Virus record (IMG/VR): IMGVR_UViG_3300010370_000050 | Coordinates: 1 to 54,190 of that record | Length of the DNA stretch: 54,190 nt | From: a virus | Lineage: Duplodnaviria > Caudoviricetes | Reading direction: 5' to 3' (one strand) | Shown here: positions 7,052 to 26,390 of the stretch, in pieces | How positions within the stretch are numbered: position 1 is the stretch's first letter | Layout: every line of letters begins with the position of its first letter | Made by a program: the position numbers and the translations under genes | The notes under the pieces: generated by a model | What the model saw: the letters and a program-made list of their open reading frames with translations, nothing else | What the model was told of the DNA's origin: nothing | The model's database searches: none

Positions 7052-7070
7052 CCCCAGCTCACCTAACTGC

Positions 7071-7092
7071 AACCCGCTTCGGCGGGTTTTTT
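7071..7092 (+). terminator. Rho-independent terminator
   Basis: AACCCGC-TTCG-GCGGGTT followed by a T run. Confidence 0.9.
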
Positions 7093-7098
7093 ATCGCC

Positions 7099-7484: not shown

Positions 7485-7502
7485 AACGGTTCTACAAGCC
7501 TG

Positions 7503-8922: not shown

Positions 8923-9383
8923 TGACCAGAACCAAAGTAGCCGGTCTGGCCCTGAGCGCAGCGGCCCTGGTTTCTATCGCCCTTCATGAGGGCTATTCCG
9001 ATAGAGCCTATCAACCAGTACCAGGCGATAAGCAGACGATCGGGTTTGGAACCACGGAGGGTGTTAAGCCTGGTGATACGATCACCCCGCCAAAGGCCCT
9101 AGAACGCGCTCTACGCGACGTTCAGAAGTTTGAAGGGGCTATCAAGGACTGCGTCAAAGTTCCGCTCTACCAGCACGAATACGACGCTTACATCAGCTTC
9201 TCGTACAACATTGGATCCTCCGCCTTCTGTAATTCAACCCTCGTGAAGAAGTTAAATGCAGGGGATTACGAAGGTGCGTGTGCAGAGATCCGTCGCTGGG
9301 TGATGTTTCAGGGCAAGCCTCTACAGGGCTTGGTTAATCGTCGTGAAGCCGAATACAAGAAGTGCATCGGTGGATCCGTTTGA
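8922..9383 (+). CDS. SAR endolysin, GH24 lysozyme
   Basis: Hydrophobic N-terminus (MTRTKVAGLALSAAALVSIA); HEG...D..TIGFG triad; YNIG; GLVNRREAE. True start ATG at 8922. Confidence 0.92.
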   Translation: MTRTKVAGLALSAAALVSIALHEGYSDRAYQPVPGDKQTIGFGTTEGVKPGDTITPPKALERALRDVQKFEGAIKDCVKVPLYQHEYDAYISFSYNIGSSAFCNSTLVKKLNAGDYEGACAEIRRWVMFQGKPLQGLVNRREAEYKKCIGGSV

Positions 9384-9394
9384 AGGAGATCCGC

Positions 9395-9895
9395 GTGGAG
9401 GCTTTGGCAGTTCGCATCCTCATCTTTGTTCTTGTGGTGCTTGCTTCCCTTGGCGGCGGTTACTTGAAAGGCCGGTCGGACGCCAACAGTGGATGGGAGA
9501 AGAAAGCCCTGGAGATGGAAACCGCTTCGCAGAGAAAGTTAGCGGAGGTCACCTCTCAAGTCAGGAAGGTGGAGTTCGAGGCTCAGGAGAGTCTGAGCGC
9601 TCTGTCAGCGAAACACAGCAAGGAGACGAAGGATGCCAAGGCTAAGTCGGATCGTGTTCTTTCTGACGTTCGTGCTGGTGCTTACCGGCTGTCAGTCCCT
9701 GCCCTCCGTTGTCGAGACGCCGAAGCCCTCTATCCCACCACTCCCCGCGGAGATCGGACAGAAGCGAGAGCCGAACTTGCAACAGAGGCTGCTGCAACTC
9801 TTGTCTCCATCGCCGCAGAAGGAGACGACGCAATCAGGCAGTTAAACGCCTGTATCTCTGCCTACAACGACATCCGTGAGCGATTCAACAAATGA
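9395..9895 (+). CDS. Rz: i-spanin
   Basis: AAGGAG RBS then GTG; N-terminal membrane helix, coiled coil, C-terminal IRQLNAC. Confidence 0.85.
   Translation: MEALAVRILIFVLVVLASLGGGYLKGRSDANSGWEKKALEMETASQRKLAEVTSQVRKVEFEAQESLSALSAKHSKETKDAKAKSDRVLSDVRAGAYRLSVPALRCRDAEALYPTTPRGDRTEARAELATEAAATLVSIAAEGDDAIRQLNACISAYNDIRERFNK
9633..9845 (+). CDS. Rz1: o-spanin lipoprotein embedded in Rz (+1 frame)
   Basis: Signal peptide with lipobox VLTG-C and Pro-rich mature part; entirely inside Rz. Confidence 0.85.
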   Translation: MPRLSRIVFFLTFVLVLTGCQSLPSVVETPKPSIPPLPAEIGQKREPNLQQRLLQLLSPSPQKETTQSGS

Positions 9896-11841
9896 CAGTC
9901 ATTAGCGTCAAAGCATTCGGTGGACTGAGACCCATCTCTCAGCCACGTCTCTTGGATTCGTCTGAGGCCCAGGTTGCACAGAACGTCAAGCTGGTTTCTG
10001 GTGCGCTTGTTCCTATGAAAGGCACGAACGTCCTTAAGGCGACCACCAGTGCAAATCCGCAGACCATCTTCCGCTATGGGACTTCCGCGACTGAAACCAA
10101 CTACTGGCTCGAGTTCACCGGAGATGTGGACGTGGTCAAGTCTCCGATTGCTGGTGACCAGTACGACCGTCTCTATTGGACTGATGGCGTCCTTCCTCGT
10201 TACGCACCGAATAGCCTAATCGTCTCTGGCGCTTCTTATCCCGGGGCCTCCTATCAGCTTGGCATTCCGGCTCCCAGCACAGCTCCCACGATCTCAAACT
10301 ACACGGCTCCTGCCACCTTCACGATCGTCTCCAGGGACTACGTGATCTTCTTCTTCAACCCAACGACCAGTGCTCAAACAACAGCCACCAGGGTTGTCCC
10401 GGTCCAAGCGGTGGATGGAGAAGACGTCATCCTGAAGGATATGCCTGTTTCCACGGTGACCGGTTTCACGCAACTGAAGATCTACCGCAAGGTTTCAGGA
10501 ACCTTCCGCCTTGTGGCGACCATTGACCAGACCCAAACCTCTTACACGGATGCAGCTACCGATGCTTCCCTTGCGAGTGCGACTGCTGCGCCAACAGTCA
10601 CTAACGTCACGACTTCGTTCACGATCGAAGGCAAAATCCCTACTCGAGTGGTTCCTGAAGCCAGAACCTACGTCTACACCTACGTCACCGCCTACGGAGA
10701 AGAAGGTCCTCCTTCTGCCGCCTCTGCATTGGTGAATCTGGATCCAGCTCAGTCCGTCACGGTCACCGTCCCCTCAGGTTCTCCAAACGGTTCCTACAAC
10801 ATCACCAACAAGCGGATCTACAGATCCTCCACAGTAGGTTCTGCAGCCCAATTCCAGTTCGTTGCTGAGATTCCCCTCGCTACAGGCTCTTACGTGGATT
10901 CTGTGGCCCAGGCAAACCTTGGTGAGATCCTTCCCTCAGAAGACTGGGTTGCCCCTCCTGCCGGTCTTAAGGGCCTCAAGCTCATGGCCAATGGGGTTGG
11001 AGTTGGATTCGTTGGAAGGACCCTGTACCTCTCTGAGCCTTATCTGCTTCACGCATGGCCTCACCAGTACTCGGTTGATAGCGACATCGTGGGCCTGGGT
11101 GTGTTTGGTCAGAGTGTTGTTGTGCTGACAAAGGGTAACCCTTATGTCTTCAACGGCGTCGATCCTGCCGCGATGTCAGAGACAAGGCTTGCTGCACCGC
11201 AGTCCTGCACATCCAAGCAGTCCATCGTGGATATGGGTGACGGGGTTCTGTACGCCTCACCTGATGGTCTTGTGATGATCAATCCTGGTGGCGTTTCTCT
11301 GATCACAGAGAAGCTCTACTCCAGGGAACAGTGGCAAGCCTTTAACCCATCGAGCATCCGTGGCTCCGTCTACAACGGTCGCTATGTCATGAGCTATGAC
11401 GCAAGCGGTACTCGCGGGATTGTGATGCTTGACTTCACTGGACAAGGCGCAATCCTCACGACATCGAACATCAATTCATCCACTGCGATCACTGCTTCGT
11501 TCTACGACGCTACAACCGACACGCTGTACTTCGCACAAGGCGCGAATATCGTCCGCTTTGATAGAGGTTCGAACCTCACGTCCACTTGGAAGAGCAAGGT
11601 TTTCCGGCTTCCCTTTGAGGACAACTTCGCTATTGCCCAAGTCCAGGCTGAGTCTTATCCGGTGACCTTCAAGGTCTATGGGGATGGGACCCTTCGCCAC
11701 ACAGAGACCGTCGCAAGCAGTAAGGAATTCCGCTTGCCTTCAGGGTTCCGGTGCAGGGACTGGGAGTTCCAGATCGAAGGCTCTGCCACCGTGACTGAGG
11801 TCGCGATTGCCAACTCTGTTGCTGAATTGAGGGGCGTATGA
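9892..11841 (+). CDS. Tail nozzle/stabilisation-type protein
   Basis: FGGLRP start; YVYTYVTAYGEEGPPS; beta-propeller-like LYLSEPY...HAWP; WKSKVF. Confidence 0.7.
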   Translation: MTVISVKAFGGLRPISQPRLLDSSEAQVAQNVKLVSGALVPMKGTNVLKATTSANPQTIFRYGTSATETNYWLEFTGDVDVVKSPIAGDQYDRLYWTDGVLPRYAPNSLIVSGASYPGASYQLGIPAPSTAPTISNYTAPATFTIVSRDYVIFFFNPTTSAQTTATRVVPVQAVDGEDVILKDMPVSTVTGFTQLKIYRKVSGTFRLVATIDQTQTSYTDAATDASLASATAAPTVTNVTTSFTIEGKIPTRVVPEARTYVYTYVTAYGEEGPPSAASALVNLDPAQSVTVTVPSGSPNGSYNITNKRIYRSSTVGSAAQFQFVAEIPLATGSYVDSVAQANLGEILPSEDWVAPPAGLKGLKLMANGVGVGFVGRTLYLSEPYLLHAWPHQYSVDSDIVGLGVFGQSVVVLTKGNPYVFNGVDPAAMSETRLAAPQSCTSKQSIVDMGDGVLYASPDGLVMINPGGVSLITEKLYSREQWQAFNPSSIRGSVYNGRYVMSYDASGTRGIVMLDFTGQGAILTTSNINSSTAITASFYDATTDTLYFAQGANIVRFDRGSNLTSTWKSKVFRLPFEDNFAIAQVQAESYPVTFKVYGDGTLRHTETVASSKEFRLPSGFRCRDWEFQIEGSATVTEVAIANSVAELRGV

Positions 11842-14800
11842 GTCGCGAGACAAAAGTCCCCCAGATCCCTGCGATCACCAAAGACAATGTCACTGAGGTT
11901 CTTCAGGCGATCAAAGACATCCTCGAGGTCCGTGAAGGCGCTCGTGGCGATGCTCTCGATGAAAACGCCACCTTTCGAGATCTTCTTGCTCTACGCCTTG
12001 TTGAGTCTGGTGGTTCTATCAGTCGTGCTTCGGTTGGTGGCAATGGTTCTGTACCCGTTCTTCCGCCTGGTTCGTTCGGTGATGGCTATGACCCGAACTC
12101 GGATCTGACCGCACCCCCTGCTCCAACGAACCTCATTGCCCGTCCAGGGATCACGACGGTCCTTCTGTTCTGGGACAACGCCGCCTACAGAAACCACGCC
12201 TACACGGAGATCTGGCGCTCTGAGACCGACACCCTTGGTGATGCGGTCCGTGTCGCTACAACCGCTGCCTTCTCGTACTCTGATGCCGTCCAAGAGGGTA
12301 CGACCTACTACTACTGGGTGCGCTTTGTTTCGGTGACCAATGTCATCGGTCCATACAACGCCACCTCAGGAACCATCGCAGAGACCCGCTATGAGGTCGC
12401 CAAGCTCTTAAACGTCCTGTCTGGACAGATCACTGAGTCCCAGCTCTATACGGACCTTGGAGCCAGGATTGACCTGATTGACGGGCCTATTGGTTTGGTC
12501 GGCTCGGTGAACGCCAGGATCGGTGCGGTTCAGACTCAGGTGAATGACCTGGCCGGGACGTCTGAGTACGACAACGGCACCACCTATCAAGCCAACGCCA
12601 TCGTCAAATACAACGGTGGTCTGTATCGCGCCAAGTCAACCACGACCGGGAACCTTCCGACCAACACCACGTACTGGGACAAGATCGGGGACTACTCCTC
12701 CATCGGTGAAGCTGTCGCTGGGCTAGCGGTCCAGATGACGGATCGCTACACAAAGGCGGAGACTAACTCTGCGATCTCCTCTGCCACTTCGAGTTTGGTC
12801 TCATCGAATACGTTGAACCAGGCTCTTGGCCAGAAGAACCGCACCTACCGCCAAGCGAACCAACCTGACCCTGGGAGCTCAACTGCCGGTGATCTTTGGT
12901 TTGACTCTGACGACAACAACAAAGCCTATCGGTTCAATGGGACCGTATGGGAAGCGACTGATGACGCAAGGATCGGGTCAACGCTCGCGTCCCTGACTAA
13001 TGACTACTACACCAAAACGTCAACCGACCAGGCGATTGCTAGTGCCACATCCACCCTGGTCAGCAGCACAGCTCTGTCCAATGCCCTTGCAAACTACACG
13101 ACCACCGCTGGGCTGACGGCCAACTACTACACGAAGACTGCGACCGATCAAGCGATCAGCGCGGCAACAGCGAACCTTGTCTCGTCATCCACCCTGAACA
13201 ATTACGTTCAGACAGCGACCCTTACAACCAACTACTACACGAAGACCCAGACTGACGGAGCGATCTCCAATTCATCCTCGTTCCTTGTGGCGCGGATGGA
13301 TACCTCCTCGTCCAAGGTTTTCTACCAGACCGCCGCTCCTGTTCGTCGTGGCTACGACTCAAACAATGTCTCCCTGCCTCTGATCACCAATGACGTATGG
13401 GTGGACACCGACGACGGCAATAAGCAGTACCGCTGGAATGGAACGTCCTGGGTTGAGTCCACCGATACAAGGATCCAAGACGCTTTCAATGCCGCTGCTG
13501 CAGCCCAAGCTTCTGCTGACGGGACGATTAAGACCTACTTCCAGACTAGCCCGCCAACAGGACTGACGACTGGAGATGTTGGCGATCTCTGGTTCGACAC
13601 TGACGATACGAACAAGATTTACCGATGGAACGGTTCAAGCTGGTCAGCAGCTCAGGACACCAGGATCGCAACCGCAATTGCTGATGCGTCCAATGCGCTG
13701 TCCACCTCTCAGACCAAGATCACCACGTTTTTCCAGACCTCTCAGCCCACCGCAACAACGGTTGGAGACCTCTGGATTGATACCGATGACAGCAACCAGC
13801 CATATCGCTGGAACGGGTCTTCGTGGGTCAGCATCAGGGACGGGAACATTGCAGCGGTTGACGCTCGGGTAACCAATGTAGAGCGAGCCAAGATCGGCTA
13901 TGTGACCAGGAATTCCACCGGTCTGGCCTTTGAGGGCAACGGCTCCTTTGTTGTGTATCCGGTAGCTACATACCCGGATGCAAACTACCCTGAATACGCC
14001 GCAAACCGCACCACGATCATTGACAAGGTTGGCGTGGACCGTTGGAACGCTTCTTTCCCAGCGGACCAGGTTACATGGCGCATCGGGCTTCCGATGTCCA
14101 CTGCCGTCAAGCAGGTCTCTGTATCCGATGGTTCACAGAGCCTGACGCTTGAGCAAAGGTTCACCGCCCAGAAGAACACCAACGACACATTAACCGGTCA
14201 GTACACCGTCAAGATCGATGCTAACGGCCATGTGTCTGGCTTTGGTCTGGCAAGTGGCGCGGTTAACGGAACGCCGACCTCGTCCTTCATCGTCAGGGCA
14301 GACCGGTTTGCACTAGCTTCCCCGACTGACACATCAAACCCACTAGGAACGCTGAGCCCAACGCAGTCCAGCATGCCGTTCATGGTCTTCACGACCCCAA
14401 CAACGATCACGATCGGGGGCAAGACCAAGACTTATCCGGCAGGCGTGTGGATGAACGCCGCATTCATTGCGAATGCCACCATCGATTCGGCTCACATTGA
14501 AAGCCTGACTGCCAACAAGATCACCGCAGGGGAAATTTCAGCAGCCGTTTCAATGACGGCACCGGTCCTTAAGTACGGTCCAAGCTATGCCTTTGGCAAC
14601 ACAGGATTCTTCCTTGGTGATGACGGAGGCACACCTAAGTTCTACGTCGGTAACGGCAGTGACAGGTACATCAAGTGGGATGGAAGTCAGGCCACGATCT
14701 CCGGTCTGATCTACGCAGGTGGCGGTCAGATCGGCGGGATCAACATCGCCGGTGGCGGGATCTCAAGCGCCAACTATATCGACGGTTCCGCTGGGTTTGC

Positions 14801-15437
14801 CATGAACTTCGAGGGGTATGCCCAGTTCAATAACGTCTCTGTTCGAGGAAACGTCGTTGCAACGTCAGGGACGATTGGCGGAAACGTCATTGACTCAACG
14901 GGCGTTAGATCGTCCAACTACGCTGCAGGTTCTGCCGGTTGGAGGATCAACTCAAGCGGAAGTGCTGAGTTCAGGAACATCATCGCTCGTGGCGACATTG
15001 AAGCTTCGACCCTCAAAGCCAATACGGTCATGGTCGAGACGCTCAACATCAACGGCAATGCGGTCACGGTGCCGTTCTTCTCCAATAGCGCAGGCGGAAC
15101 GTTCACCTCATCAGCCGCCTTCTCGTTCGATACAAGCTCTCAGAACCTGGTATCCGGGACCCTATTGATGGTCACGGCTGTAGCCGAGATCAACAACGTT
15201 GCATTTGGCGGTGGGTTCAAGGGCGCTGCCATGCAAATCATTATGTATGGCCCATCCAACGCCTTGGTCTGTAGGACTGGGATTTCTTACAACAACTATG
15301 GAGTGATCGTAACGAGCGGCGGTGTTTTAATACCAACCACCGGAAGCTACTACTTGCACATTGATGTTTACACAACAGATGCATCAAGCGGAACCGTCAC
15401 AAGCGTTGCGGTTTCAGGATTTGGGGGTAAGCGATGA
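11838..15437 (+). CDS. Central tail fibre/host-specificity (J-like) protein with internal repeats
   Basis: FN3-like APTNL...YYWVRFVS; GDLWFD.DD.NK.YRWNG repeats; QYTVKIDANGHVSGFGLA...FIVRADRFA; GWRINSSGSAEFRNI. Confidence 0.8.
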   Translation: MSRETKVPQIPAITKDNVTEVLQAIKDILEVREGARGDALDENATFRDLLALRLVESGGSISRASVGGNGSVPVLPPGSFGDGYDPNSDLTAPPAPTNLIARPGITTVLLFWDNAAYRNHAYTEIWRSETDTLGDAVRVATTAAFSYSDAVQEGTTYYYWVRFVSVTNVIGPYNATSGTIAETRYEVAKLLNVLSGQITESQLYTDLGARIDLIDGPIGLVGSVNARIGAVQTQVNDLAGTSEYDNGTTYQANAIVKYNGGLYRAKSTTTGNLPTNTTYWDKIGDYSSIGEAVAGLAVQMTDRYTKAETNSAISSATSSLVSSNTLNQALGQKNRTYRQANQPDPGSSTAGDLWFDSDDNNKAYRFNGTVWEATDDARIGSTLASLTNDYYTKTSTDQAIASATSTLVSSTALSNALANYTTTAGLTANYYTKTATDQAISAATANLVSSSTLNNYVQTATLTTNYYTKTQTDGAISNSSSFLVARMDTSSSKVFYQTAAPVRRGYDSNNVSLPLITNDVWVDTDDGNKQYRWNGTSWVESTDTRIQDAFNAAAAAQASADGTIKTYFQTSPPTGLTTGDVGDLWFDTDDTNKIYRWNGSSWSAAQDTRIATAIADASNALSTSQTKITTFFQTSQPTATTVGDLWIDTDDSNQPYRWNGSSWVSIRDGNIAAVDARVTNVERAKIGYVTRNSTGLAFEGNGSFVVYPVATYPDANYPEYAANRTTIIDKVGVDRWNASFPADQVTWRIGLPMSTAVKQVSVSDGSQSLTLEQRFTAQKNTNDTLTGQYTVKIDANGHVSGFGLASGAVNGTPTSSFIVRADRFALASPTDTSNPLGTLSPTQSSMPFMVFTTPTTITIGGKTKTYPAGVWMNAAFIANATIDSAHIESLTANKITAGEISAAVSMTAPVLKYGPSYAFGNTGFFLGDDGGTPKFYVGNGSDRYIKWDGSQATISGLIYAGGGQIGGINIAGGGISSANYIDGSAGFAMNFEGYAQFNNVSVRGNVVATSGTIGGNVIDSTGVRSSNYAAGSAGWRINSSGSAEFRNIIARGDIEASTLKANTVMVETLNINGNAVTVPFFSNSAGGTFTSSAAFSFDTSSQNLVSGTLLMVTAVAEINNVAFGGGFKGAAMQIIMYGPSNALVCRTGISYNNYGVIVTSGGVLIPTTGSYYLHIDVYTTDASSGTVTSVAVSGFGGKR
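12745..13860 (+). repeat. Intragenic repeats in the fibre gene
   Basis: Four YTK..T..AI..A...LV units and four (GDLW/DVW).D.DD.N..YR.NG..W units. Confidence 0.75.
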
Positions 15438-15994
15438 TTATGTTTGCGCGGTATGACGCGAATGGTCGGTACACCTGGTACGGCAACGCGGGTTCTGATA
15501 CGGAGCTAAACGAACCTGGGGTCTACGTTGGCCTAGTTGACATCTACAGGCAGTACCACGATGTGGCCACGAACAGGCCGGTCAATATCCCAGCCAAGCC
15601 CTCACTAAATCACGTCTTTGACTACGCCCTTAAGCAGTGGGTTGACCCAAGGACCCTGGATCAGATCAAAGCAGCCCAGTGGGAACTCATCAAAGCGGCT
15701 CGAGATGCCGCTGAGTTCAGTTCGTTTATCTGGGATGGGTCGGAGTTCGACGCAGACGCCTTGAGTCAGCAGCGAATCATTGGGGCAGCTCAGCTTGCCG
15801 AGATCAACCCAGCCTTCGAGATCGACTGGACCCTGGCAGACAACTCCGTCAGGACCCTGAATGCAGCCCAGATGAAGTCAGTGGGCACCGCCCTTGGCGC
15901 TCACGTCAATGCCCAGCACGTCAAGGCTCGAGGGCTTAGGACACAGATTGAAAACGCAACCACCCGCGCAGAAGTCGAGGCGGTGACCTGGTAA
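15434..15994 (+). CDS. DUF4376-like tail-fibre-associated protein
   Basis: FDADALSQQRIIGA, IDWTLADNS, C-terminal AEVEAVTW. Confidence 0.75.
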   Translation: MIMFARYDANGRYTWYGNAGSDTELNEPGVYVGLVDIYRQYHDVATNRPVNIPAKPSLNHVFDYALKQWVDPRTLDQIKAAQWELIKAARDAAEFSSFIWDGSEFDADALSQQRIIGAAQLAEINPAFEIDWTLADNSVRTLNAAQMKSVGTALGAHVNAQHVKARGLRTQIENATTRAEVEAVTW

Positions 15995-15999
15995 GGACT

Positions 16000-16446
16000 A
16001 TGAACGACGACGAATACTTGATGCACTGCCTCCATGGAGACCGTGACGCTTACGACTTTTGCAAACAGATTGTGATGATCTCCAACGTTTGGGATGACCT
16101 GATTGACCAGGACAAGACAATCCCAGCAGAGATGATCAACAAGGCGTTTTACGCATCTCTCATTGAGATTCCATGCAACCCGTTCTTCCAACGGTTCATT
16201 TCGGTTCTTACCCCGATCATGGCCAACGGGATCATGAACTGGCACATCTCTAACACACTAGTGACCAAAGGTGAAAGAGCTTTGGAGATAGCCCACGTCT
16301 TGAGATACTCAGCCGGGGATGTAATTTGTCAGTGCGTGTTGTTAATTGGTGGAATGGATTGGGCAAGGCAGGTTTGTCCTGAACTAAGGATGCGCATTCA
16401 AAAGGATTCATTGGAGAATTTCAAAAAGGAAGTCAGCCATGCGTAG
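16000..16446 (+). CDS. Helical hypothetical protein with DDxxD motif
   Basis: VWDDLIDQD...IPCNPFF; AAGGA RBS. Confidence 0.6.
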   Translation: MNDDEYLMHCLHGDRDAYDFCKQIVMISNVWDDLIDQDKTIPAEMINKAFYASLIEIPCNPFFQRFISVLTPIMANGIMNWHISNTLVTKGERALEIAHVLRYSAGDVICQCVLLIGGMDWARQVCPELRMRIQKDSLENFKKEVSHA

Positions 16447-17497
16447 TTTCAAAGACATCATCTACGGCTGGTTCTGGAAGTACCTGACCAAGACTGGTCT
16501 GGTTATGTGCATCGACCTTGGTGGGGATGCTCCGGAACCGGATCCTCTCATCGGTCAAGCTGCAAAGCAAAACGCCGAACTCGGCAAAGAAGCCCTCGAT
16601 TTCTACAAGACGGTCTATGAGACAGACCTTAAGCCCATGCAGAAAGAGCAGATGGCTCTTGCTAAGGGCTTGGTCACCGACTACCTCGCGGACCGTCAGA
16701 CGCAGCGTGACTTTGCTGCCAGACAGAACGCCTACTACGAGGACACTTATCAGCCGATCGAACGTCGTATGGCTCAAGAGGCCATGGACTACGACAGCGC
16801 TGGGAACATCGCTCGTCGTCAGGGGATCGCTGCTGCCGGGGTGAACCAACAGTTCTCGAACGCTCGTGACCAGGGTATCCGTGCCCTGACCCGGATGGGC
16901 GTGAACCCCAACAGTTCAGCCTTTGCTCGAGCCAATGACCGACTGACTAATGCTCAGGCTCTGGCTTCCGCGGGAGCCCAGACCGGTGCTGCCTTCGACA
17001 CCGTAGATCGTGGGATCGCCCTTCGAGCTGGTGTCGCTAACTTCGGTCGGAACATGCCCAACACCGCTGCTCAGTACTTTGGACTGGCGAATCAGACAGG
17101 TGGCATGGCAAGCAACATATCCGCTCAGCAGATGGACGCAGCTCGTGCCAATGCAGGGATGGTTGGACAAGGGTTCAACACCGCGATCTCAGGCAACCAG
17201 TCCGCTGGGAACCTCATGCTCGGTGACTTCCAAGGCCGGATGCAGGGCTACCAGGCTGATCAGCAAGCGATGTCTGGACTCTTCCAGGGTCTCGGGATGT
17301 TGGGTGGTGCCTACCTTGGTATGCCCCCGCTCAAACGGGCTAAGGGTGGTGAGGTCGAAGGGCCAGGTACGTCAACCTCGGACAGCATCCCGGCAATGCT
17401 CTCTGATGGCGAATACGTCATCAACGCTGCCGCGGTCAAGAAGGTCGGTACCGACTTCCTCGACAAGATCAACAAGATGGGTTTGAAAGGAAACTGA
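16439..17497 (+). CDS. Ejection/internal virion protein
   Basis: Ala/Gln/Gly-rich helical sequence; C-terminal AKGGEVEGPGTSTSDSIPAMLSDGEYVINAAAVKK. Confidence 0.7.
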   Translation: MRSFKDIIYGWFWKYLTKTGLVMCIDLGGDAPEPDPLIGQAAKQNAELGKEALDFYKTVYETDLKPMQKEQMALAKGLVTDYLADRQTQRDFAARQNAYYEDTYQPIERRMAQEAMDYDSAGNIARRQGIAAAGVNQQFSNARDQGIRALTRMGVNPNSSAFARANDRLTNAQALASAGAQTGAAFDTVDRGIALRAGVANFGRNMPNTAAQYFGLANQTGGMASNISAQQMDAARANAGMVGQGFNTAISGNQSAGNLMLGDFQGRMQGYQADQQAMSGLFQGLGMLGGAYLGMPPLKRAKGGEVEGPGTSTSDSIPAMLSDGEYVINAAAVKKVGTDFLDKINKMGLKGN

Positions 17498-17498
17498 T

Positions 17499-18779
17499 AT
17501 GGCACTAGCTGCTGGGTTGGGCGGACTTGCCCAAGGCTTTGCTCAGGGCCTGAAGCTGAGATCTGATCTTGAGGACGCTCAAGCTAACCGTGAGTTCCGT
17601 CAGAAGCAAGCCGGAATCATGGAGCAGCAACGTGAGTTGAACCAGCTCGAGATCAACAAGGGCGCTCGGATGCAGGAGACCCAGCGTCGGATTGCTGAGG
17701 AGTTCCAGAACTTCAAGAACTACGGCGGTGATTACGCGCAGTTCAAGCCACAGACCGAAGGCGTTGGTGCAAACGCTCCGCTAGATCCCTTCCAGAACTT
17801 CAAGGCAATCGACTTCCACTATGACCGCATGAAGGGTCTGCTTCAAGAACAGGCTCTGATCGCCGGGAAAGATCCGTTCGAAGTGGAGAGATCTGTTCGC
17901 GCTCTTCGCAAAGAGAATTACATGGAGGACCTTGGCAGAGCAATGACCGCCTTCCGTCTTGGTGATCCTAGTGCTGTCGATACGATCAAGGGCGTCTACA
18001 ACAAGTCTTTCAGAGACGGCAACCAGATGACCGGTGGCACGTTCGATGAGGCTTCTGGCAAGTTTGTCTTCGAGTTCAAGACCAAGGACGGCAACGTGGT
18101 GCCAAGGTCTTTTTCCCGGGACGAGATCCTCGACACGCTCTCCCGCGGCGCAATGAATGTTGCCGATGCTGCAAAGCTCGACATGCAAGCGCGTGAAAAC
18201 GAGAAACAACGCGGCCACGAATCCAAGATGCTTGGCACCAAGCTGGAGTTCGAAGGCAAGGAAGGCGCTGCAAACCGCACCTCTCGCGAAAAGATCTCTG
18301 CGGAAGAGAACAAGTCAGCAGAAAAGCGCACTGGCATCTCTGCTGGTGCAACGATCCAGGCAGCAAACATTCGCGCAGCCAGTGACGAGAAAGTCGCAGG
18401 AATCAGCGCAGAGACCAGAAAGAGCGAAGCCATGCAAACTCGTATCGACAGGGTTCGTAAGGACTTTGGCGAAGAGTTGAACTCTGCCTTTGGCTACAAC
18501 GACAAGTCATCCTCTGCCCTTGAAGGTGCGGAGTTGAATCGCTTGAACGAGAACAAGACCATTGCTCGCGGGATTCTGGATGGTTATGTCGATCGCGGCA
18601 TGGGCATTAGCGCATCTGAAGCAGCTCTTGCAGTGAACGCCTTGCGCAATCCAAAGGGCACTAAGTTCGGTACCACGAAGGATGCGGATGGCAAGGAGAT
18701 CTACTTCGTTGAGACCAATGGCCAACGAATCATGGTGCCCAAGCGGTACGTGCCCCAAGAGTTCATGAAAGGAAAGTAA
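17499..18779 (+). CDS. Ejection/internal virion protein
   Basis: GLGGLAQGFAQG start; lies between ejection-type genes. Confidence 0.6.
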   Translation: MALAAGLGGLAQGFAQGLKLRSDLEDAQANREFRQKQAGIMEQQRELNQLEINKGARMQETQRRIAEEFQNFKNYGGDYAQFKPQTEGVGANAPLDPFQNFKAIDFHYDRMKGLLQEQALIAGKDPFEVERSVRALRKENYMEDLGRAMTAFRLGDPSAVDTIKGVYNKSFRDGNQMTGGTFDEASGKFVFEFKTKDGNVVPRSFSRDEILDTLSRGAMNVADAAKLDMQARENEKQRGHESKMLGTKLEFEGKEGAANRTSREKISAEENKSAEKRTGISAGATIQAANIRAASDEKVAGISAETRKSEAMQTRIDRVRKDFGEELNSAFGYNDKSSSALEGAELNRLNENKTIARGILDGYVDRGMGISASEAALAVNALRNPKGTKFGTTKDADGKEIYFVETNGQRIMVPKRYVPQEFMKGK

Positions 18780-18782: not shown

Positions 18783-21700
18783 ATGCCGTTCGCCCTCACC
18801 CCAAGCAAGGGTAAGCCGATCGATCTGTACGGCGATGACGTCAAGATCTTCAAGACCAGTGAAGAAGCTGGTTCGGAAGTCAGGTCAGGTTTGTACCGGT
18901 CGCCTTTTGCGGATCCACTCGAACAAGAGAAGTCCCGTCTTGGGATCGGTGAACGCATCGATGCCGGTGTCTCTGCGCTTGGCGAGAGGATGTTTGGAAA
19001 GCCAGAGGTCAACCCTGCTGACGTCAACCAGGCTGGGCTTCAGTCTGTTGCTGCTCGTAATGCGGAGATTGATCGACGTGCTGCCGCATACCGTGCGGAG
19101 ATTGAGCAGAGGAACGGTCTCGAGAGAGCGATTGGTGCAGTCGTTGACCCGATTGCCGCCGGTATCGCGAACACCGTAGGTGGCGTTGCTGGGTACGCAG
19201 GGCGCAAGTTCGGCATCCAGTCTCTTCAAGATATCGAGATGAAGGCTGCGGCTGATGCCAAGGCCCTCATGGGAAACGACCCTAACCTGGCACAGAAGGT
19301 TCTCCAGGGTGTTGGATCTGCTGGTGCCGGTGTAGCTACGGCAATTCCTGCCGCTATTGGTGCCATGTATGCAGGTGCTCCGCTAGGCGTAGCGACCACC
19401 ATTGGTGCCCTTGCTTCTACCGCGGTTAACCAATCTGGTGTAGCTCAGGAAGCCTATCGCGGTGCCATGGAGGCGACCGGCAACGAGAAGGTTGCTGATG
19501 TCCGTGGAGATACGGCTGCTGCTGCAACCATGATCCCGAACTTCTTCCTCGATAAGTTCGGTGTGAAGCTTGGACTTGGTGCTGCTGCTGGTACCTCGAT
19601 GACCGCAAGAGCAGGTCGCGTCACTGGAGCTGGTCTCCTTGAAGGAGCGCAAGAAGGTTTCGTTGAGCAACCTGCAATCAACATCGCTTCATATCGTCCT
19701 GCTGGTGAGGGTGTTGCTGAATCCGCTTTGGTCGGTGGTCTTTCCGGGGCTGCAGTTCGTGGTGCCCAAGAGATCGGAATGCGTGGTGGTCAGCAGCAAC
19801 AAGATCCCCTGGCCAATCTCCCTGAACAGAACATCGATCAAGTTGTTCCTGGTTCTCAAGCTCGAGCAGCTCAGGAACCTGGCAAGCCCTTGCCTGATGT
19901 CTTTGTGGTCACGCCTGATGGCACAGCCATTCCTGCTCAGGACTTTTCCGCGGAAGCCTATGACCGTTACAAGCGGTCTCAGCAAGGCGATCCAGTCCCC
20001 CTGCTTGGGTTCTCTCAGCCTGAAGGCAACCGTCGCTTCCTGCTCACGGATCAGCGCAGTGGCGAACAGATCGTTGTTCTTCCTGATGGCACAGCAATCC
20101 CACGTTCCGAGTTCAACCAGGCTGAGTACGACTCGCTCGTTTCTGCTCGTGATGACCGGATCCAACGCGGTCTTCTTCTTGCCTACAGCCCAGAATCTGA
20201 CAGGCCATTCTTCGTAGCACCGGATGGAAGTGCCTTCCGCTCCTACGTGGACTATCGCTCTCATGTTGCTGAGCTCGCACAGAACACCGAAGACCAGCGC
20301 ATGGCAGCGCTTGCCGCCCAGAAGACCCCTCGTGTTCGCCTGAATGAACTAGAGACCACAGACAATGCATCTGTACTTGTATTCGACAAAGGTCGTAATG
20401 GGGTTCTAGGGACCATTCAGCCTGGTGCCAAGACCGTCGAGATCGATGGCACTCGTGTCCCGATCACCAAGTCCATGACCTTTATCCCGGTGGAAGAGAA
20501 GATCCTCCGTACCCGGGAAGAGATCCGTGCTGAGAACAGCCCTGCTTTTGACGTGCAGCTCCCGATGGACTTCGCATTCCAGGGCGCACCGAAAGCTGAT
20601 GGCTCGGTCACTGGTACGGTCAAGCAGGTTAGCTACGGTCTTTCGCTGGTTGCTGACCCAGAGATCCCTGGCCGTCTGCGCCCTGTACGGCACACTGACG
20701 TACTGATCAACGGGAAGATGGTTCGCCTACCAGGAACCCTGTCCCAAGAAGCCGTAGGTCAGAAGCTGCGTATTTCGACCGCTAAGGGCTCCGATGGCGT
20801 TCGGTATGGTATTGAGTCAACCCAGCTTCAAAAGCCCGTTGTAGCCCGTTCTGGCAAGCCTCAGGCCCTTCCTAACGTCAGTACTTCTCAACAAGCCCCT
20901 GCACTTCCGTCGGCAACCCAAGAAACTCAGCCGGTCACCGAGGCTCAAGCCCCAGCTCCGATCGTTAAGACCGTCAAGAAGACTCCTTCCAGGGCGATTG
21001 CCACTGGGGTTCAGCCACTGAACTACCAAGACGGGACTCGTGGTGCCATGGTCCGCATGGACAACGGCAGCGCGATTGAAATCCAGGAACAGGGCAAGCA
21101 GTGGGTAGACACCACTGGCCAGGTGCTTGGTAACAATCTTGAGCAAGCAGTCCAAGCTGTCCAGACTCGTGAGCGCAAGGGAGGTGAAGTTGCTCAGACA
21201 ACCAACGAACGCCTTGAGACCGTCAGCCAACAACAAGCCGGTACTCCGACGGAACCCGAAGCCGCGACTAAAGCTAAGCAGATATCCAAAGGAAAGCGAA
21301 ATGCCACTCAAAAAGGGAAGCAGCAACAAGACAATCAGCAGCAACGTCAAGAAGATCGTGGACGAGTGGAAACAGGACGGGACGATCGGCAACAGCAAAC
21401 CGAAGAACAAGGCAAAAGCAGTGCAACAAGCGGTAGCGATCGCCCTGCAAAAAGCAAGGAAGAAATAAAGAAGGAACGCCTTGAGCGGATCAACGCTGCT
21501 CAACGTGCAAAGAACCCTGACTACGGCAAGAAGATTGGTGACGTCACGGTTGCTGCCTTCAAGCGTATCTCTGCCCGTATTGAAGACACCTGGAACGCAT
21601 TCGTTCGTGCGCTTGACGGTATGGCTCGTGCAGCAGAACAACGCGATGACGGTGCTCGTACTGGTCGTGACACCGAAGAAGCTACGGTTGTTCGCTCTAC

Positions 21701-24700
21701 TCAGCGCCTTGATACAGCGTTGCGTGAAGTCTTTGGCAATGACGCAGAGATTGCTCGCCTTCGTCTACAGCAGAACGAGAATGCAGCGAACCTTGTGCGC
21801 GAGAAGCTCGAGAGCGGAAAGCTTGCTGTTCCTGGCAACGTAGACCGCGGTGTCTTGAAAGCGCTTGAGCCTACCGAGTTGCTCGAGAAGCTTGGCACTG
21901 GAAGGACTGAGCTCGAGGCACGGATGCAAAGCCTGATTGAACTGGCTTCACGTACGAACCCAACGCCTCTGATGCAAGCAGTCATCCGCTCCAAGACCAA
22001 AGACATCCAGGCATCGATCGCTCGGTACAAGGGAATCCCTGAAGACCAGCGTCAACAGGCCTTTGATGATCTTCGTCAGTTAGCCACAGCAAGAAGCAAT
22101 ATCCGAAATCAGACACCGGAAGTTGCGGAGTCCAAGAAAGCTAGAGCTGTTGAGCAAGACAAGGACCAGAACAATCAGATGGCCCTAGCTTTACAGCGAG
22201 CTTTTACCGGCGAATCTGAAAAGCCCATGGATCCTCGTGACCTTCGGGACACGATGAAGAACGGTCCGGTCAAAGATGTCCCCACAACCAAAGAGATCTC
22301 GGAAGCTCGTGAGCTCTATGACGAGAACCGTGCTGAGAACCAGCCGACCTTCGATCGCTTCGTGAAGGACGAGCCTCTGCTTGCTGCAGCTTGGATTGAC
22401 GCAGTCAACTCAAGCCCTTCCTACGCATCGATTGCCTACTTCGATGAACTTCAGGCTCGTTACAGCAAAAACCAACGTGCCACCAAGAGCAATGAGAAGG
22501 TGGCAGAGAACAGGATTGCTGCAGTCGAAGGCGCGAAGAACGACGTCATCACTGACCGTTACCTTGCGATCGTCAAGAAGTCCCTGTCTAAGGCTGACAA
22601 CCAGGTTCTCAATGACGTCTATGGGGATGCCAAGCAAAGCACCCTGAGGTCTGGCTTCGCTAAGGATCTGCTTGCCTTCTACAACGGCGAGAAGGTTGAT
22701 CCCAAGGTTGAGGCGATCATCAAGAAGGTTGACAAGGTCATCAAGGCTGCTGATATCCCCTCCATGCCGAGGACTCGTGAAGAGTTCTGGGGTGGGGACA
22801 TCGATAACCAGTTCTTTGACGCTGATCTTTCCGGTCGGCTTGAGACCACCAACGATATCCGTGACGTCCTCGAGTTCATCTATCGCGCCTCTCCAAATGC
22901 AGACATGCGTTCCCTGGCGAAACAGTTGATGGACGCTGGGGTGCAGGGTGATATTCGGATGGCGGACCAGAAAGATAATCCTGACGGTCGTGCCGCTGAT
23001 TCGAACCACTTCTTGCAGCGCATTCGTCTGTTTGGAGATGTGGACCTCGAACACAACATAATGCACGAGGCTGTCCACCTTGCAACGATGAACGGCTTAT
23101 TGCAGCGTACCCCTGCTGCTCGAGCCCTTGAGAAGCTCTATGAGCAGATCAACAAGAACGCTGATGCGAAACCCTATGGACTGAAGAACGTCAAGGAATT
23201 CGTTGCTGAACTCAAGAGCAACCCTGACTTCCAAGAGTTCTTAGCCAAGCAGCCTGGTGGCGGATTCTTCCGGACCATGTTTGACCGTGTGGTCAACGCT
23301 GTGCGTCGTGTCATTGGTCTTGAGCCTCGTGACAACAGCGCTCTGAAACGGGCAATGATGCTGTCAGACCAGCTCATCAAGGAAGACCGTGAGCTCACCG
23401 CTAAGGGTTCGATCGCGATGGGTGAGGATGTTGCTGCCCACTACAGCCGTCCTGTTGAGGTCTATGCCTACGACAAGAACGGTGACGTGGTGGGCCTTGC
23501 TCAAATGGATCCGTCATCTGGCGATTGGCGGGTGTTCTTATCTCAAAGTGGAGATATTCGGAAGACCTCCAACTACACAACTCAGCTCTTCAACAAGACT
23601 GATGATGCGATCAAAGCTATGCGTGGTCCTGGCATCCGTCTGGTCCGTCGCAAGGACTCTCCAGCTCGTGGATCTGTATCACCTGGTGATATGGTTGAGA
23701 TCTCCACTGACGTCGTACCGTCGAACAAGATCTCTGCTGCAATCGATGCAGCCCTTGGGAAGATGGGTATCCGTCCGGACAATGTCCGTCGCCTGATCAC
23801 GGATAGCGAGATCGACATTCGGTCGGTGATCGACAACCTCCGTAAAGAAGGCCATGCAGTTGGATCGGATCTTGACTTCTATGCTGCTCTAACACGCACA
23901 CCTGGTGCTACAGGTGCAGCGCTGGATAAGTTCAACCGCCAGTTTGTTGAGCCCCTTGAGAAGACCTATGCCGCACTCATGAAGAAGGGTGTGACTGCCA
24001 AGGAGATCAACCAGTACCTAACCGCCAAGCATGCTGAGGAGCGCAATGACGTAATCGCTCAGCGCAATCCTGCTATGCCTGATGGTGGATCTGGGATGAC
24101 TACGGCAGACGCTCGAGCTCTTCTTCAAAGCTTTGCCGGTCGGTCCTATGCGGCTGACCTCGATGCCCTCAGCAAGATCTTTGAGGACATGTCTGACTTC
24201 AAGGTCAAGCTCATGCAAGACAAGGGGCTGATCGACTCGAAGACTGCAGCCTCATTGAAGAAGTACAAGAACTACGTGAACCTTCGTGGCTTGGATGAAG
24301 ACCCTGAGGAAATTCACGCAGCAGTAGGCATTGCCAAGAAACCTGGTCCTGCATTGAAGACCGCCAAGGGTCGTTCTACAGAGGCAGCAAACATCATCCA
24401 GAACACGATCCTGGATGCCGAGGCTGTGATCCTCAAGGCTTATCAGAACGAGGCAAGGCAGTCCCTCTTAAAGCTTGCAGAGAAGTTCCCTGACCCTGAC
24501 TTCTGGGTCGTGGCTCCGATCAAATCCCGGATGGTCATCGACAAGAAGACCGGCAATGTCCGGTTTGCTGGTGACCCCACCCTGGCTAACAGCGTCCACT
24601 CTGCTGAGATCTTCGTGGATGGTGAGCTGGTCCGGGTTGAGATGAAGGACGCTCACTTTGCAACCGCGGTGAATAAAGCAGCAGACAAGCTACCAGATGT

Positions 24701-26390
24701 TGTGGATAAGGTGGCTAAAGTCTTGGCTGCATATAACCGGTGGAAGGCAATGCTGCTCACTCAGTTGAATCCTGAATGGGCAATCACCAACGCCTTCCGT
24801 GATGCCGGTGCTGCGATCGCCAACGTCAAGGTGGATGAGGCTGAAAAGCAGATCCCACAGGAAACCCTGAAAGAAGCTGCCAAGTCCTACGCCTCTTCCA
24901 TGCGCGAGATGTTTAAGTACGTCCGTGATCCTGATAACGCACCTGGTGCAGTGGCTTCAAAGATCCGTCGCTTCGAGGAGCTCGGTGGAACCACCAAGTT
25001 CTTCGGGCTAAACGACATCGAGCAGAAGCTCAACAAGTTCCGTGACCTAGAAGCCAAGGCTCAGAACAAGGGCGTTCGTGGCAAGGCACTGAACCTGATC
25101 GAGAAGAGCAAGGTTGGGAATCTGCTTGACGTGATCATGGATCTGAACTCCACCGTGGAGATGCTGCCCAGGTTCGCTGCCTTCGATGCACTAACCAAGC
25201 TCGGGGTTGATGATCAAACCGCTGCCACCTACGCCAAGAACCTGAACGTCAACTTCAATCGCCGCGGTGAGCTGGGTTGGCTGTCCAATGTCTACCTGTT
25301 CTTCAATGCTGCGGTGCAGGGTAACGTCCGTACCGTGAAGGCTTTGGGTACCAAGACTGGTGGCGCGATCGCAGGTGGTCTCTTTGTAGCTGGGTTGATC
25401 GAAGCAGCAATCGGTCACGCCCTGGATGACGATGAGAACGACAACGGAAAGCCCGACATCGAGGAGCTCTCTGACTACGACCGCAACACCAACATCGTGA
25501 TCCCAGTGGGTGGCAACAACTACTTCAAGATCCCGCTTCCGTATGGCTTTAACGCCATAAAGGCTGCAGGTTCCCACATGGGGGATTCGATCTGGGGTAC
25601 CAAGTCTCCGGTCAAAGCAGCATGGGCAACGCTTCGTGCGTTCTCTGATGCCTATAACCCGATCGGTGCTGGAGATTCATCCAGTGCTGCGAACACTGCG
25701 ATCAAGATGATCTCGCCTGAGATTACCGATCCGATCGTGGAGTACGCCTTAAACGAGAACCGCTACGGTGCCCCGATCAGGAAAGAGAACCGACCAGGGA
25801 TGCCGTCTTTGCCTGACTCCGAGCTCTACTTTGACTCGGTCTCTGGGGTCTCGAAGGCTGTGAGCTCGTTCCTGAACAGCGCGACTGGTGGCAACAAGTT
25901 TGTCTCTGGTGCGATCGACATCAACCCTGCAGCGATTGACCAGTTCTTTGGGGCGATCCTCCCGGGTACCCCGTCAGTCGTAACGCGTGGCGTTAATACC
26001 GCGGTGAAGGCTGCGACCAGTGAGGCAGAGATCGAGATCCGTGAGATCCCGTTTGTCCGTCGAGTCCTCACCGAACCGGCCAAGGCTTCGACCTACAAGG
26101 ATTACTCCGAGGTCAAGGCGCTGATCGACCAGCTCAAGAACATCGACAACAACGGTGTCCGTGAGCAGCGTCAGAAGCTCAAGGAGTTCCCGGGATGGAG
26201 AGGGGTAGAAGCTCAGCTCGATGCCGCAGAGAGCGTCCGGAAAGACTTGGTCACCAGGAAGCAGTCAATCCGCAACGGTGACGTCAAGGTGGCGGACAAG
26301 GACCTCGAGATCCAGAAGATCGATGAGAAGATCCTCAAGCTCGAGAACCGTGTCCTGAAGCGCTACAACGCGGTCTCAGACGCCTGGTAA
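18783..26390 (+). CDS. Large polyvalent/ejection protein with zincin-like motif and LPD38-like C-terminus
   Basis: 2535 aa; HEAVH (HExxH); C-terminal VNFNRRG...YLFFNAAVQG...KIPLPYGFN. Confidence 0.75.
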   Translation: MPFALTPSKGKPIDLYGDDVKIFKTSEEAGSEVRSGLYRSPFADPLEQEKSRLGIGERIDAGVSALGERMFGKPEVNPADVNQAGLQSVAARNAEIDRRAAAYRAEIEQRNGLERAIGAVVDPIAAGIANTVGGVAGYAGRKFGIQSLQDIEMKAAADAKALMGNDPNLAQKVLQGVGSAGAGVATAIPAAIGAMYAGAPLGVATTIGALASTAVNQSGVAQEAYRGAMEATGNEKVADVRGDTAAAATMIPNFFLDKFGVKLGLGAAAGTSMTARAGRVTGAGLLEGAQEGFVEQPAINIASYRPAGEGVAESALVGGLSGAAVRGAQEIGMRGGQQQQDPLANLPEQNIDQVVPGSQARAAQEPGKPLPDVFVVTPDGTAIPAQDFSAEAYDRYKRSQQGDPVPLLGFSQPEGNRRFLLTDQRSGEQIVVLPDGTAIPRSEFNQAEYDSLVSARDDRIQRGLLLAYSPESDRPFFVAPDGSAFRSYVDYRSHVAELAQNTEDQRMAALAAQKTPRVRLNELETTDNASVLVFDKGRNGVLGTIQPGAKTVEIDGTRVPITKSMTFIPVEEKILRTREEIRAENSPAFDVQLPMDFAFQGAPKADGSVTGTVKQVSYGLSLVADPEIPGRLRPVRHTDVLINGKMVRLPGTLSQEAVGQKLRISTAKGSDGVRYGIESTQLQKPVVARSGKPQALPNVSTSQQAPALPSATQETQPVTEAQAPAPIVKTVKKTPSRAIATGVQPLNYQDGTRGAMVRMDNGSAIEIQEQGKQWVDTTGQVLGNNLEQAVQAVQTRERKGGEVAQTTNERLETVSQQQAGTPTEPEAATKAKQISKGKRNATQKGKQQQDNQQQRQEDRGRVETGRDDRQQQTEEQGKSSATSGSDRPAKSKEEIKKERLERINAAQRAKNPDYGKKIGDVTVAAFKRISARIEDTWNAFVRALDGMARAAEQRDDGARTGRDTEEATVVRSTQRLDTALREVFGNDAEIARLRLQQNENAANLVREKLESGKLAVPGNVDRGVLKALEPTELLEKLGTGRTELEARMQSLIELASRTNPTPLMQAVIRSKTKDIQASIARYKGIPEDQRQQAFDDLRQLATARSNIRNQTPEVAESKKARAVEQDKDQNNQMALALQRAFTGESEKPMDPRDLRDTMKNGPVKDVPTTKEISEARELYDENRAENQPTFDRFVKDEPLLAAAWIDAVNSSPSYASIAYFDELQARYSKNQRATKSNEKVAENRIAAVEGAKNDVITDRYLAIVKKSLSKADNQVLNDVYGDAKQSTLRSGFAKDLLAFYNGEKVDPKVEAIIKKVDKVIKAADIPSMPRTREEFWGGDIDNQFFDADLSGRLETTNDIRDVLEFIYRASPNADMRSLAKQLMDAGVQGDIRMADQKDNPDGRAADSNHFLQRIRLFGDVDLEHNIMHEAVHLATMNGLLQRTPAARALEKLYEQINKNADAKPYGLKNVKEFVAELKSNPDFQEFLAKQPGGGFFRTMFDRVVNAVRRVIGLEPRDNSALKRAMMLSDQLIKEDRELTAKGSIAMGEDVAAHYSRPVEVYAYDKNGDVVGLAQMDPSSGDWRVFLSQSGDIRKTSNYTTQLFNKTDDAIKAMRGPGIRLVRRKDSPARGSVSPGDMVEISTDVVPSNKISAAIDAALGKMGIRPDNVRRLITDSEIDIRSVIDNLRKEGHAVGSDLDFYAALTRTPGATGAALDKFNRQFVEPLEKTYAALMKKGVTAKEINQYLTAKHAEERNDVIAQRNPAMPDGGSGMTTADARALLQSFAGRSYAADLDALSKIFEDMSDFKVKLMQDKGLIDSKTAASLKKYKNYVNLRGLDEDPEEIHAAVGIAKKPGPALKTAKGRSTEAANIIQNTILDAEAVILKAYQNEARQSLLKLAEKFPDPDFWVVAPIKSRMVIDKKTGNVRFAGDPTLANSVHSAEIFVDGELVRVEMKDAHFATAVNKAADKLPDVVDKVAKVLAAYNRWKAMLLTQLNPEWAITNAFRDAGAAIANVKVDEAEKQIPQETLKEAAKSYASSMREMFKYVRDPDNAPGAVASKIRRFEELGGTTKFFGLNDIEQKLNKFRDLEAKAQNKGVRGKALNLIEKSKVGNLLDVIMDLNSTVEMLPRFAAFDALTKLGVDDQTAATYAKNLNVNFNRRGELGWLSNVYLFFNAAVQGNVRTVKALGTKTGGAIAGGLFVAGLIEAAIGHALDDDENDNGKPDIEELSDYDRNTNIVIPVGGNNYFKIPLPYGFNAIKAAGSHMGDSIWGTKSPVKAAWATLRAFSDAYNPIGAGDSSSAANTAIKMISPEITDPIVEYALNENRYGAPIRKENRPGMPSLPDSELYFDSVSGVSKAVSSFLNSATGGNKFVSGAIDINPAAIDQFFGAILPGTPSVVTRGVNTAVKAATSEAEIEIREIPFVRRVLTEPAKASTYKDYSEVKALIDQLKNIDNNGVREQRQKLKEFPGWRGVEAQLDAAESVRKDLVTRKQSIRNGDVKVADKDLEIQKIDEKILKLENRVLKRYNAVSDAW
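21301..21468 (+). CDS. Nested out-of-frame small basic protein (55 aa)
   Basis: AAGGA RBS; MPLKKGSSNKTISSNVKKIVDEWKQDGTIGNSKPKNKAKAVQQAVAIALQKARKK. Confidence 0.72.
   Translation: MPLKKGSSNKTISSNVKKIVDEWKQDGTIGNSKPKNKAKAVQQAVAIALQKARKK

Follow-up and report, generated by a model that had tools for sequence, protein, structure and literature searches.

The IMG/VR record IMGVR_UViG_3300010370_000050 comprises 54,190 nucleotides (nt) of a tailed phage (Caudoviricetes), referred to here as the window. On the plus strand, among internal-virion and tail genes, a gene of 2535 codons encodes a giant virion protein, and within it lies a second open reading frame (ORF) in the +1 frame (Table 1). Direct reading of the window places the ATG of this nested ORF at 21301, followed by 55 sense codons and a TAA at 21466-21468. 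Its computed translation, MPLKKGSSNKTISSNVKKIVDEWKQDGTIGNSKPKNKAKAVQQAVAIALQKARKK, is identical to the peptide given in the original prediction, which had been made from the DNA letters without database searches, and the AAGGA motif, the ATG and the 55-codon +1 frame named there are all present. The low-complexity linker described for the giant frame was likewise seen in the host-frame translation, which reads ...KGKRNATQKGKQQQDNQQQRQEDRGRVETGRDDRQQQTEEQGKSS... across the overlap. As a complete ORF with its own start and stop inside another ORF and in a different frame, the nested ORF is an internal overlap in the strict sense. Taken together, the evidence presented below makes it very probable that 21301-21468 is a functional protein-coding gene nested in the +1 frame of the 2535-amino-acid (aa) virion-protein gene, and that this DNA is dual-coding.

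Table 1 Features of the nested locus, in positions of the window
Feature	Position	Strand	Remarks
Giant virion ('polyvalent'-type) protein gene	18783..26390	+	2535 aa, read through the nested gene
N-terminal conserved domain	18828..19772	+	Residues about 16-330; common to giant proteins of 2448-4251 aa
Shine-Dalgarno-like AAGGA	21289..21293	+	7 nt 5' of the nested ATG
Host-frame segment over the nested gene	21300..21470	+	Host residues about 840-896; Q/G/K/R-rich low-complexity linker, stop-free, residues not conserved
Nested gene	21301..21468	+	55 codons + TAA, +1 frame of the giant ORF; small basic phrog_2423-type protein
Host codon CAA	21309..21311	+	Inside the nested codons CTC AAA
C-terminal conserved region	22986..26363	+	Residues 1402-2527; homologous to a 3058-aa giant protein without the nested gene

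The length of the nested ORF proves nothing, because there is more than one open frame in this T-poor region, where the AT skew reaches 0.57 at 21150-21449. The +1 frame contains a single stop between 21127 and 21843, and eleven out-of-frame ATG-initiated ORFs within the giant gene are longer than the nested one. Also open in the T-poor stretch are a minus-strand ORF opposite the nested gene (20817-21641, 274 aa) and a +1 ORF just 3' of it (21481-21843, 120 aa). A PHROG search returned no match for either of these ORFs or for the +1 frame at 21127-21300, and the other open frames of the stretch are probably compositional artefacts. Judged by sequence comparison, it is homology and conservation, and not the open frame alone, that exceed chance, decisively so in the case of homology.

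The small protein (P0001) matched phrog_2423 with an E-value of 5.2e-8 and 33.8 bits, its residues 1-22 aligning to positions 1-22 of the 52-position profile. A search of 5.8 billion proteins retrieved seven proteins of 45-80 aa with 63-86% identity to P0001, five of which spanned 95-98% of the query; the full-length free-standing proteins were 63% identical over this range. In IMG/VR at least 458 stretches, out of 598 that matched the search pattern, encode a relative. The loci of the best 80 of these 458 were inspected together with those of phage DSL-LC04 and cyanophage KBS-S-2A (n=82). The stand-alone family named in the original prediction does exist: in 81 of the 82 loci the small gene lies outside any long ORF, and in 80 no other forward frame runs across it. 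One of the remaining two has a trivial open stretch of 61 codons (L036), and the other, L066, has a frame of 2717 codons, the sole long-ORF case in the survey. The cultured carriers found were an unclassified lake phage and cyanophages.

Among 27 aligned members, including that of the window, the residues M1, P2, L3, K4, K5, G6, S8, K10, N15 and A46 are invariant. All invariant and near-invariant columns, which form the motifs MPLKKG.S.K...N, G.IG.S.P and QA.A, are kept in the window protein. It belongs to the same family as the stand-alone 'MPLKKGSS...' proteins, with 63-72% identity to the closer members and an equal core size, but lacks the C-terminal extension of about 30 aa, ending in ...DGNRPVKIY, that many of them carry. 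Matches by tblastn in Caulobacter phages of the phiCbK type (E-values 2-10, N-terminal 22 aa only, among tRNA genes) were discarded as too weak, and a Rhizobium phage, the closest cultured relative by its capsid (49%), gave no tblastn match for the small protein.

The stand-alone gene adjoins the 3' side of a portal, head-morphogenesis or head protease gene. In the commonest layout its ATG lies 8 nt ahead of the portal stop codon. A stop at nt 9-11, in the frame that corresponds to the host frame of the window, occurs in 55 of the 72 unique stand-alone copies, and in the 30 loci with a complete upstream ORF it closes an ORF of 774-896 aa. Both upstream ORFs tested matched the portal family phrog_1216, that of DSL-LC04 is annotated as portal, and 26 of the 27 other aligned upstream ORFs were 56-88% identical to one of the tested portals. 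Other copies follow a head-morphogenesis gene, another portal type (L039) or a head maturation protease (L053). In these 55 copies, from the stand-alone loci of the survey (L003-L082), the upstream gene, a portal where tested, stops inside the small gene, as in ATGCCNCTTAAA; the resulting start/stop overlap of 11 nt suggests translational coupling to the upstream gene. The site of this stop, lying for example within the codons CTT AAA, corresponds to the host codon CAA of the window. While the stand-alone genes thus sit in the head/packaging module, that of the window lies inside a giant ORF about 25 kb from the portal gene, which is a difference of context and not of protein family.

The nested arrangement itself is not confined to the window. 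A degenerate pattern derived from the first 30 bases of the gene retrieved 20 IMG/VR contigs, many of them 46-58 kb long, and in all 20 the small gene occupies the same relative frame of a very long ORF. The original prediction had named stop codons in the nested frame of relatives as evidence that would speak against it; instead, the nested frame was intact and entirely covered by the host ORF in 19 loci; in the 20th, the locus stops short within the small ORF. The complete host ORFs among these relatives comprise 2683 and 2835 codons, and the nested ORFs encode 58-61 aa. The record of L066 (G001; 56,046 bp, CheckV completeness 100%) is collinear with the window, ten other ORFs matching in the same order with identities of 38% for TerL, 42% for the portal and 57% for the major capsid protein. 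These two phages do not differ in the first 30 nt of the nested gene, yet the only similarity that BLASTP detects between their giant proteins lies across the overlap. A profile search found the small gene as a single copy in the window and in G001, with exactly one match in each of the five positive-control records (nested-type G000, G001, G007 and G008, and the stand-alone control G009).

In a tree of 82 unique small proteins, the 15 nested sequences fell together with three stand-alone ones into one clade (support of 86 in the SH-like approximate likelihood ratio test, SH-aLRT). Constraining the nested copies to a single clade was accepted by the approximately unbiased test (p 0.78), the constrained tree being better by 14 log-likelihood units, so that this short alignment appears compatible with a single origin of the nested arrangement. 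Close relatives of the window type were limited to two proteins and to contigs of public sequencing runs. A 733-aa host-frame query found no relative among the viral and metagenome contigs searched, a longer DNA pattern had no match in metagenome contigs, and blastn of 20800-22000 had none in cultured phages. In two more distant giant proteins, P0018 (2743 aa) and P0024 (2998 aa), host peptides of the form ...DAAQEG(N/Q)... occur at the same relative place (residues about 797-910) and, judged from the protein sequence, are compatible with a nested MPLKKG start.

The sequences upstream of the nested copies are very different from one another, and 13 of 14 distinct contexts contain a core 4-mer of the Shine-Dalgarno motif at -18 to -4, against a background of 14% of giant-ORF positions; the 14th context reads GAAGGGGAAAG. 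Upstream of the ATG, a stop closes the nested frame of the relatives at a distance of 2 to 49 codons. A promoter scan of 20700-21700 found no sigma-70-like site, a negative that carries little weight here. No RNA run was among the public sequencing runs listed for the stretch, which says nothing about expression. In the proposed mechanism the late mRNA of the giant gene would also serve the small gene, with ribosomes starting independently at the internal Shine-Dalgarno-like site and ATG.

The foremost alternative, itself very improbable, is a programmed +1 frameshift out of the giant frame, for example at CAA-AAA-G (21309-21315), which in place of a separate small protein would yield the truncated N-terminal part of the giant protein, about 840 aa long and with residues 6-55 of the small one at its end. 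At slippery sites a +1 slip of the Lys-tRNA from AAA to AAG is conceivable, and an A-run, CTCAAAAAGGG, is present at the start of the nested gene in the window and most relatives. This run is not conserved as a slippery sequence at the junction, being replaced by CTCAAGAAGGGA in L094, L096 and L098 and by CTCAAGAAAGGA in L090. A frameshift would need neither the ATG and MPLKKG that are invariant in 27 members nor the Shine-Dalgarno core, and in the stand-alone relatives this start gives the same protein. Independent initiation is favoured because the core is present in 13 of 14 contexts, the frame is closed upstream and the A-run is not conserved.

Selection on the reading frames was assessed with 15 unique nested sequences by pooled Nei-Gojobori counting (NG86). 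Variable sites at nested codon positions 1, 2 and 3 numbered 20, 22 and 47, with 55 columns each. The comparison of the two frames proposed with the original prediction gave a ratio of nonsynonymous to synonymous change (dN/dS) of 0.23 for the nested frame and 1.74 for the host frame, with 2.67 for the third frame, values that are comparative and not absolute on overlapping frames. They indicate purifying selection on the nested frame across the relatives. In 12 unique relatives covering about 650 host codons, the host-frame proportion of synonymous differences (pS) was 0.69 upstream and 0.71 downstream of the overlap, with dN/dS of 0.20 and 0.27, which by this measure shows the giant frame to be coding on both sides. 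Within the overlap of the same relatives, host-frame pS fell to 0.085 and dN/dS was 2.0; such a synonymous drop reads as the classic signature of an overlapping coding element.

Closely related sequences gave a similar picture. Over residues 700-1100, the giant protein of the window shares 97-98% identity with two proteins, of 2535 and 2801 aa, whose four differences from it within the overlap all fall at host first positions, which are nested third positions. Three of these cannot alter the nested protein, and of the two changes that could account for the fourth, one is silent there as well. Natural variants at 20900-21900 were collected from contigs of four public runs from four studies (freshwater, estuary, aquatic and one unlabelled). 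Among the 40 variants listed, 31 of the 36 in the flanks were host-synonymous, and three of the four in the nested gene were host-nonsynonymous and nested-synonymous.

The host frame is free of stops in all 15 nested copies and in none of the 72 unique stand-alone copies; when the stop of the upstream gene itself is ignored, five of the 72 are open. T accounts for 9% of the nested copies versus 17% of the stand-alone ones, and in 20,000 synonymous resamplings of the window's small protein with the codon usage of the giant gene the host frame stayed open in 0.2%. The host frame thus also appears to be under selection, but only for staying open. The idea that both frames are maintained, as originally proposed, is borne out by these figures and by the contrast in dN/dS. 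In such an arrangement the amino acid sequence of the small protein would be the constrained reading and the linker of the giant protein would be free to vary, provided that it remains stop-free, so that the N- and C-terminal parts of the giant protein form one chain.

The roughly eightfold drop in host-frame synonymous change would be expected of any overlapping functional element, and the nested gene lies at a junction where its giant-gene neighbours differ between relatives. Both features would also suit a cis-acting nucleic-acid element, such as an RNA structure, a recombination site or a packaging site, in which the ORF is incidental. We regard this as hardly credible, as substitutions follow the periodicity of the nested codons (20/22/47), the start, stop and length of the nested ORF are kept, and hundreds of free-standing genes in other contexts encode full-length homologues of the peptide. 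Equally slim are the chances of a relic, that is, a small ORF swallowed by the giant one, unexpressed and not yet decayed. Some related phages do without the small gene, yet the window and 19 of the 20 loci have preserved an intact ORF, in phages as distant as 38% identity in TerL and 57% in the capsid protein. Synonymous sites in the flanks have reached saturation (pS about 0.7) while dN/dS in the nested frame is 0.23, and the nested gene is the only copy in each of the four nested-type records searched.

The giant ORF in turn is a real single gene, both of its ends being homologous to one protein of 3058 aa (L113), which matches the N-terminal part as well as residues 1402-2527 and whose locus lacks the small gene. 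The N-terminal domain had 23 hits, namely the near-identical P0010 and 22 further proteins, mostly of 2448-4251 aa, at their N-termini. The C-terminal 860 residues match giant-protein PHROGs, and LPD38 (PF18857) was found at residues 2226-2425 (119.7 bits against a cut-off of 27, E-value 2.1e-34), which places this protein of more than 2000 aa among the LPD38-bearing polyvalent ones. In its LPD38 domain, its giant multi-module architecture and its internal-virion and tail neighbours it resembles the large polyvalent proteins of phages, named after the Pfam entry 'Large polyvalent protein associated domain 38'. The small gene was absent from all seven loci of L113-like giant homologues. That the 2535-aa ORF instead represents two genes flanking the small one, with the host frame open by chance, would fit the T-poor region with its several open frames and the stop at nt 9-11 in most other phages, but is scarcely believable given the open host frame in 15 of 15 nested versus 0 of 72 stand-alone copies and in so few resamplings, the one to four stops of the other forward frame in each nested copy, the union of N- and C-terminal regions in a single homologue without the small gene, and host-frame dN/dS of 0.20 and 0.27 right up to both edges. 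All four alternatives were rejected on the grounds set out with each.

Several observations weigh against a functional nested gene. Translation is an inference from sequence, and Shine-Dalgarno-like motifs are easily found in purine-rich DNA. NG86 is biased here because the 'synonymous' sites of each frame are the constrained sites of the other. The 15 unique sequences are related and represent perhaps six to eight upstream contexts, so that the counts are not those of independent events. The fourth listed variant in the nested gene is host-silent and changes the nested protein (N36S), toward the commonest residue of the family, and nine more variants lie outside the 40 listed. No significant Pfam family was found for the small protein of the window, its function is assigned from gene neighbourhood in other phages only, and the portal of the window (46569-48611), which is distant from the nested gene, belongs to another family. 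Finally, none of the whole records of five more distant phages with homologous or similar giant genes, three of them at least 90% complete, contained the small gene, which is therefore not universally required.

With respect to origin, the protein of an overlap that has the wider distribution is taken to be encoded by the ancestral frame, a phylogenetic criterion given in the review PMC8227390. By this criterion the small gene would be the ancestral frame, because it is far more widely distributed, standing alone in hundreds of phages, and the linker of the giant gene would be the newer reading. There are giant proteins that have both ends but no nested gene, just as the small gene occurs in the absence of giant genes. 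This fits the earlier proposal that the giant ORF grew through or captured an existing gene. In a capture scenario the small gene would have been taken into a tolerant linker; in a read-through scenario an upstream gene would have been extended across it, and CAA in the window versus TAA, the upstream-gene stop, in stand-alone relatives amounts to one silent change of the nested Leu codon. Either scenario, capture or growth-through, would be consistent with the sequences at hand.

A more elaborate and doubtful possibility is inverse overprinting, in which an older head-module gene was threaded by a new frame that became the linker joining the halves of a 2500-2800-aa protein, the nested gene also serving as a homology island for the exchange of different N- and C-terminal halves between phages. 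Such a role is suggested because, apart from the nested gene, no DNA in the fast-evolving middle of the giant gene is strongly conserved; in addition, two unrelated downstream types begin right after the nested gene, and in some relatives a repeat-rich insert immediately precedes it. It is then also conceivable that the small protein, translated from the giant gene's mRNA, is the giant protein's dedicated partner.

The small protein is highly basic. AlphaFold2 modelled it as a two-helix hairpin, with helices at 7-26 and 37-54 and a predicted local distance difference test (pLDDT) score of 76.6. Foldseek found no match to this model in the PDB at E-values up to 0.001, a profile search of PDB sequences gave a chance-level hit only (E-value 1.1), and an Atlas search returned unnamed viral clusters only. 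DUF6496 (PF20106) did not match P0001 at E-values up to 1 and thus did not reach its gathering score; it matched weakly in five of 27 family members (best E-value 9.5e-4) and was present on 17% of the members of one similar Atlas cluster. DUF6496 proteins are of a size like that of the small protein, and their function is also not known. A literature search, with supplementary files outside its reach, found no paper mentioning DUF6496, the PHROG or the motif, and nothing on this gene, its family, the arrangement or any polyvalent gene with a nested gene. Complex prediction with portal and small-protein alignments from stand-alone loci scored 0.00, which is no evidence either way. The constant position in the head/packaging module elsewhere would therefore point to a head- or DNA-associated protein of virion assembly, which is guilt by association only and the weakest step of the proposal.

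Gene E inside gene D of phiX174 is described as a same-strand internal overlap of a small phage (PMC8227390). As in the window, the inner gene is contained entirely in an outer one on the same strand but out of frame with it, the two are both maintained, and synonymous change in the outer gene is suppressed across the overlap. In overlaps of the phiX174 type, however, the contained gene is de novo and narrowly distributed, whereas in the window it is widespread and the container's linker is novel, and the setting is the 2535-aa virion-protein gene of a tailed phage of about 54 kb instead of a compact single-stranded DNA genome.

A tailed-phage precedent is lambda Rz1, which is fully embedded in the +1 frame of Rz and has its own start signals. 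The window shares these properties. Rz1 and Rz are the two subunits of one complex and, as far as is known, always occur together; the nested gene of the window, unlike Rz1, usually stands on its own next to genes unrelated to it, and none of the data link it functionally to the host protein. We know of no polyvalent-protein gene reported to contain a second, out-of-frame gene and, to our knowledge, few tailed-phage overlaps have comparative evidence for both frames. What is new here is the inverse genealogy, the host, which is the giant polyvalent-type virion-protein gene of a tailed phage, and the fact that a whole clade, known from metagenomes only, has conserved the arrangement. The locus is an unusually clean case, with constraint on the sequence of one frame and, in the other, on its openness alone, and it reverses the usual genealogy, the contained gene being old and widespread and the container's linker new. 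It suggests a route by which giant multi-module virion proteins may grow across neighbouring genes without losing them. It also offers a handle on an uncharacterised family of small basic proteins common in aquatic phages, which, it may be argued, matters to these phages because it is retained even inside another gene.

Gene callers forbid full nesting on the same strand, and the original prediction had held that standard annotation would miss the gene. Indeed, five of the six nested proteins looked up, that of the window included, were absent from a collection of about 15 billion proteins in which the stand-alone control was present on 13 contigs. Ordinary annotation is missing a real gene here.

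In the window (45223-54122 and 304-18779), the terminase, an SU10-type portal, the capsid and downstream genes lead to the tail and internal-virion genes and on to the giant gene, an order that is collinear with G001 but circularly permuted relative to it. Within the giant protein, a motif of the HExxH type, HEAVH, lies at 23058-23072 (host residues 1426-1430), where conservation with the 3058-aa homologue begins. The homologue reads HETYGH at this site, and Pfam gave no match there; the region may be a metallopeptidase-like module.

The nested gene appears to mark a mosaic junction of the giant gene. Directly before it, an insert of about 70-75 aa (alignment columns about 285-360) is present in L089, L097, L090, L096, L098 and L102 and absent from L066, L083, L086, L088, L091, L092 and L095. 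Its repeats, G..Y.GQ.K.G.P.G.G...Y.D.STYTGQ.K.G, look MORN-like by eye, a label that is our assumption. Directly after the nested gene (columns about 480-840) the giant proteins are of two unrelated types, ...AAKLQKGPSGLAAMVGQL... versus ...LSPAEAWEDMKPEGGVAY..., represented by L066 and by L083, L086, L088 and L095, respectively, while the upstream part can be aligned in all of them. In the 2801-aa protein P0033, a near-identical variant of the giant protein P0002, the middle segment (host residues about 1300-1757) is replaced and longer; the number of differences per 100 aa rises abruptly from 0-6 to 23-52, with a break in the alignment at 1511-1551, which may be read as another sign of cassette exchange inside the giant gene.

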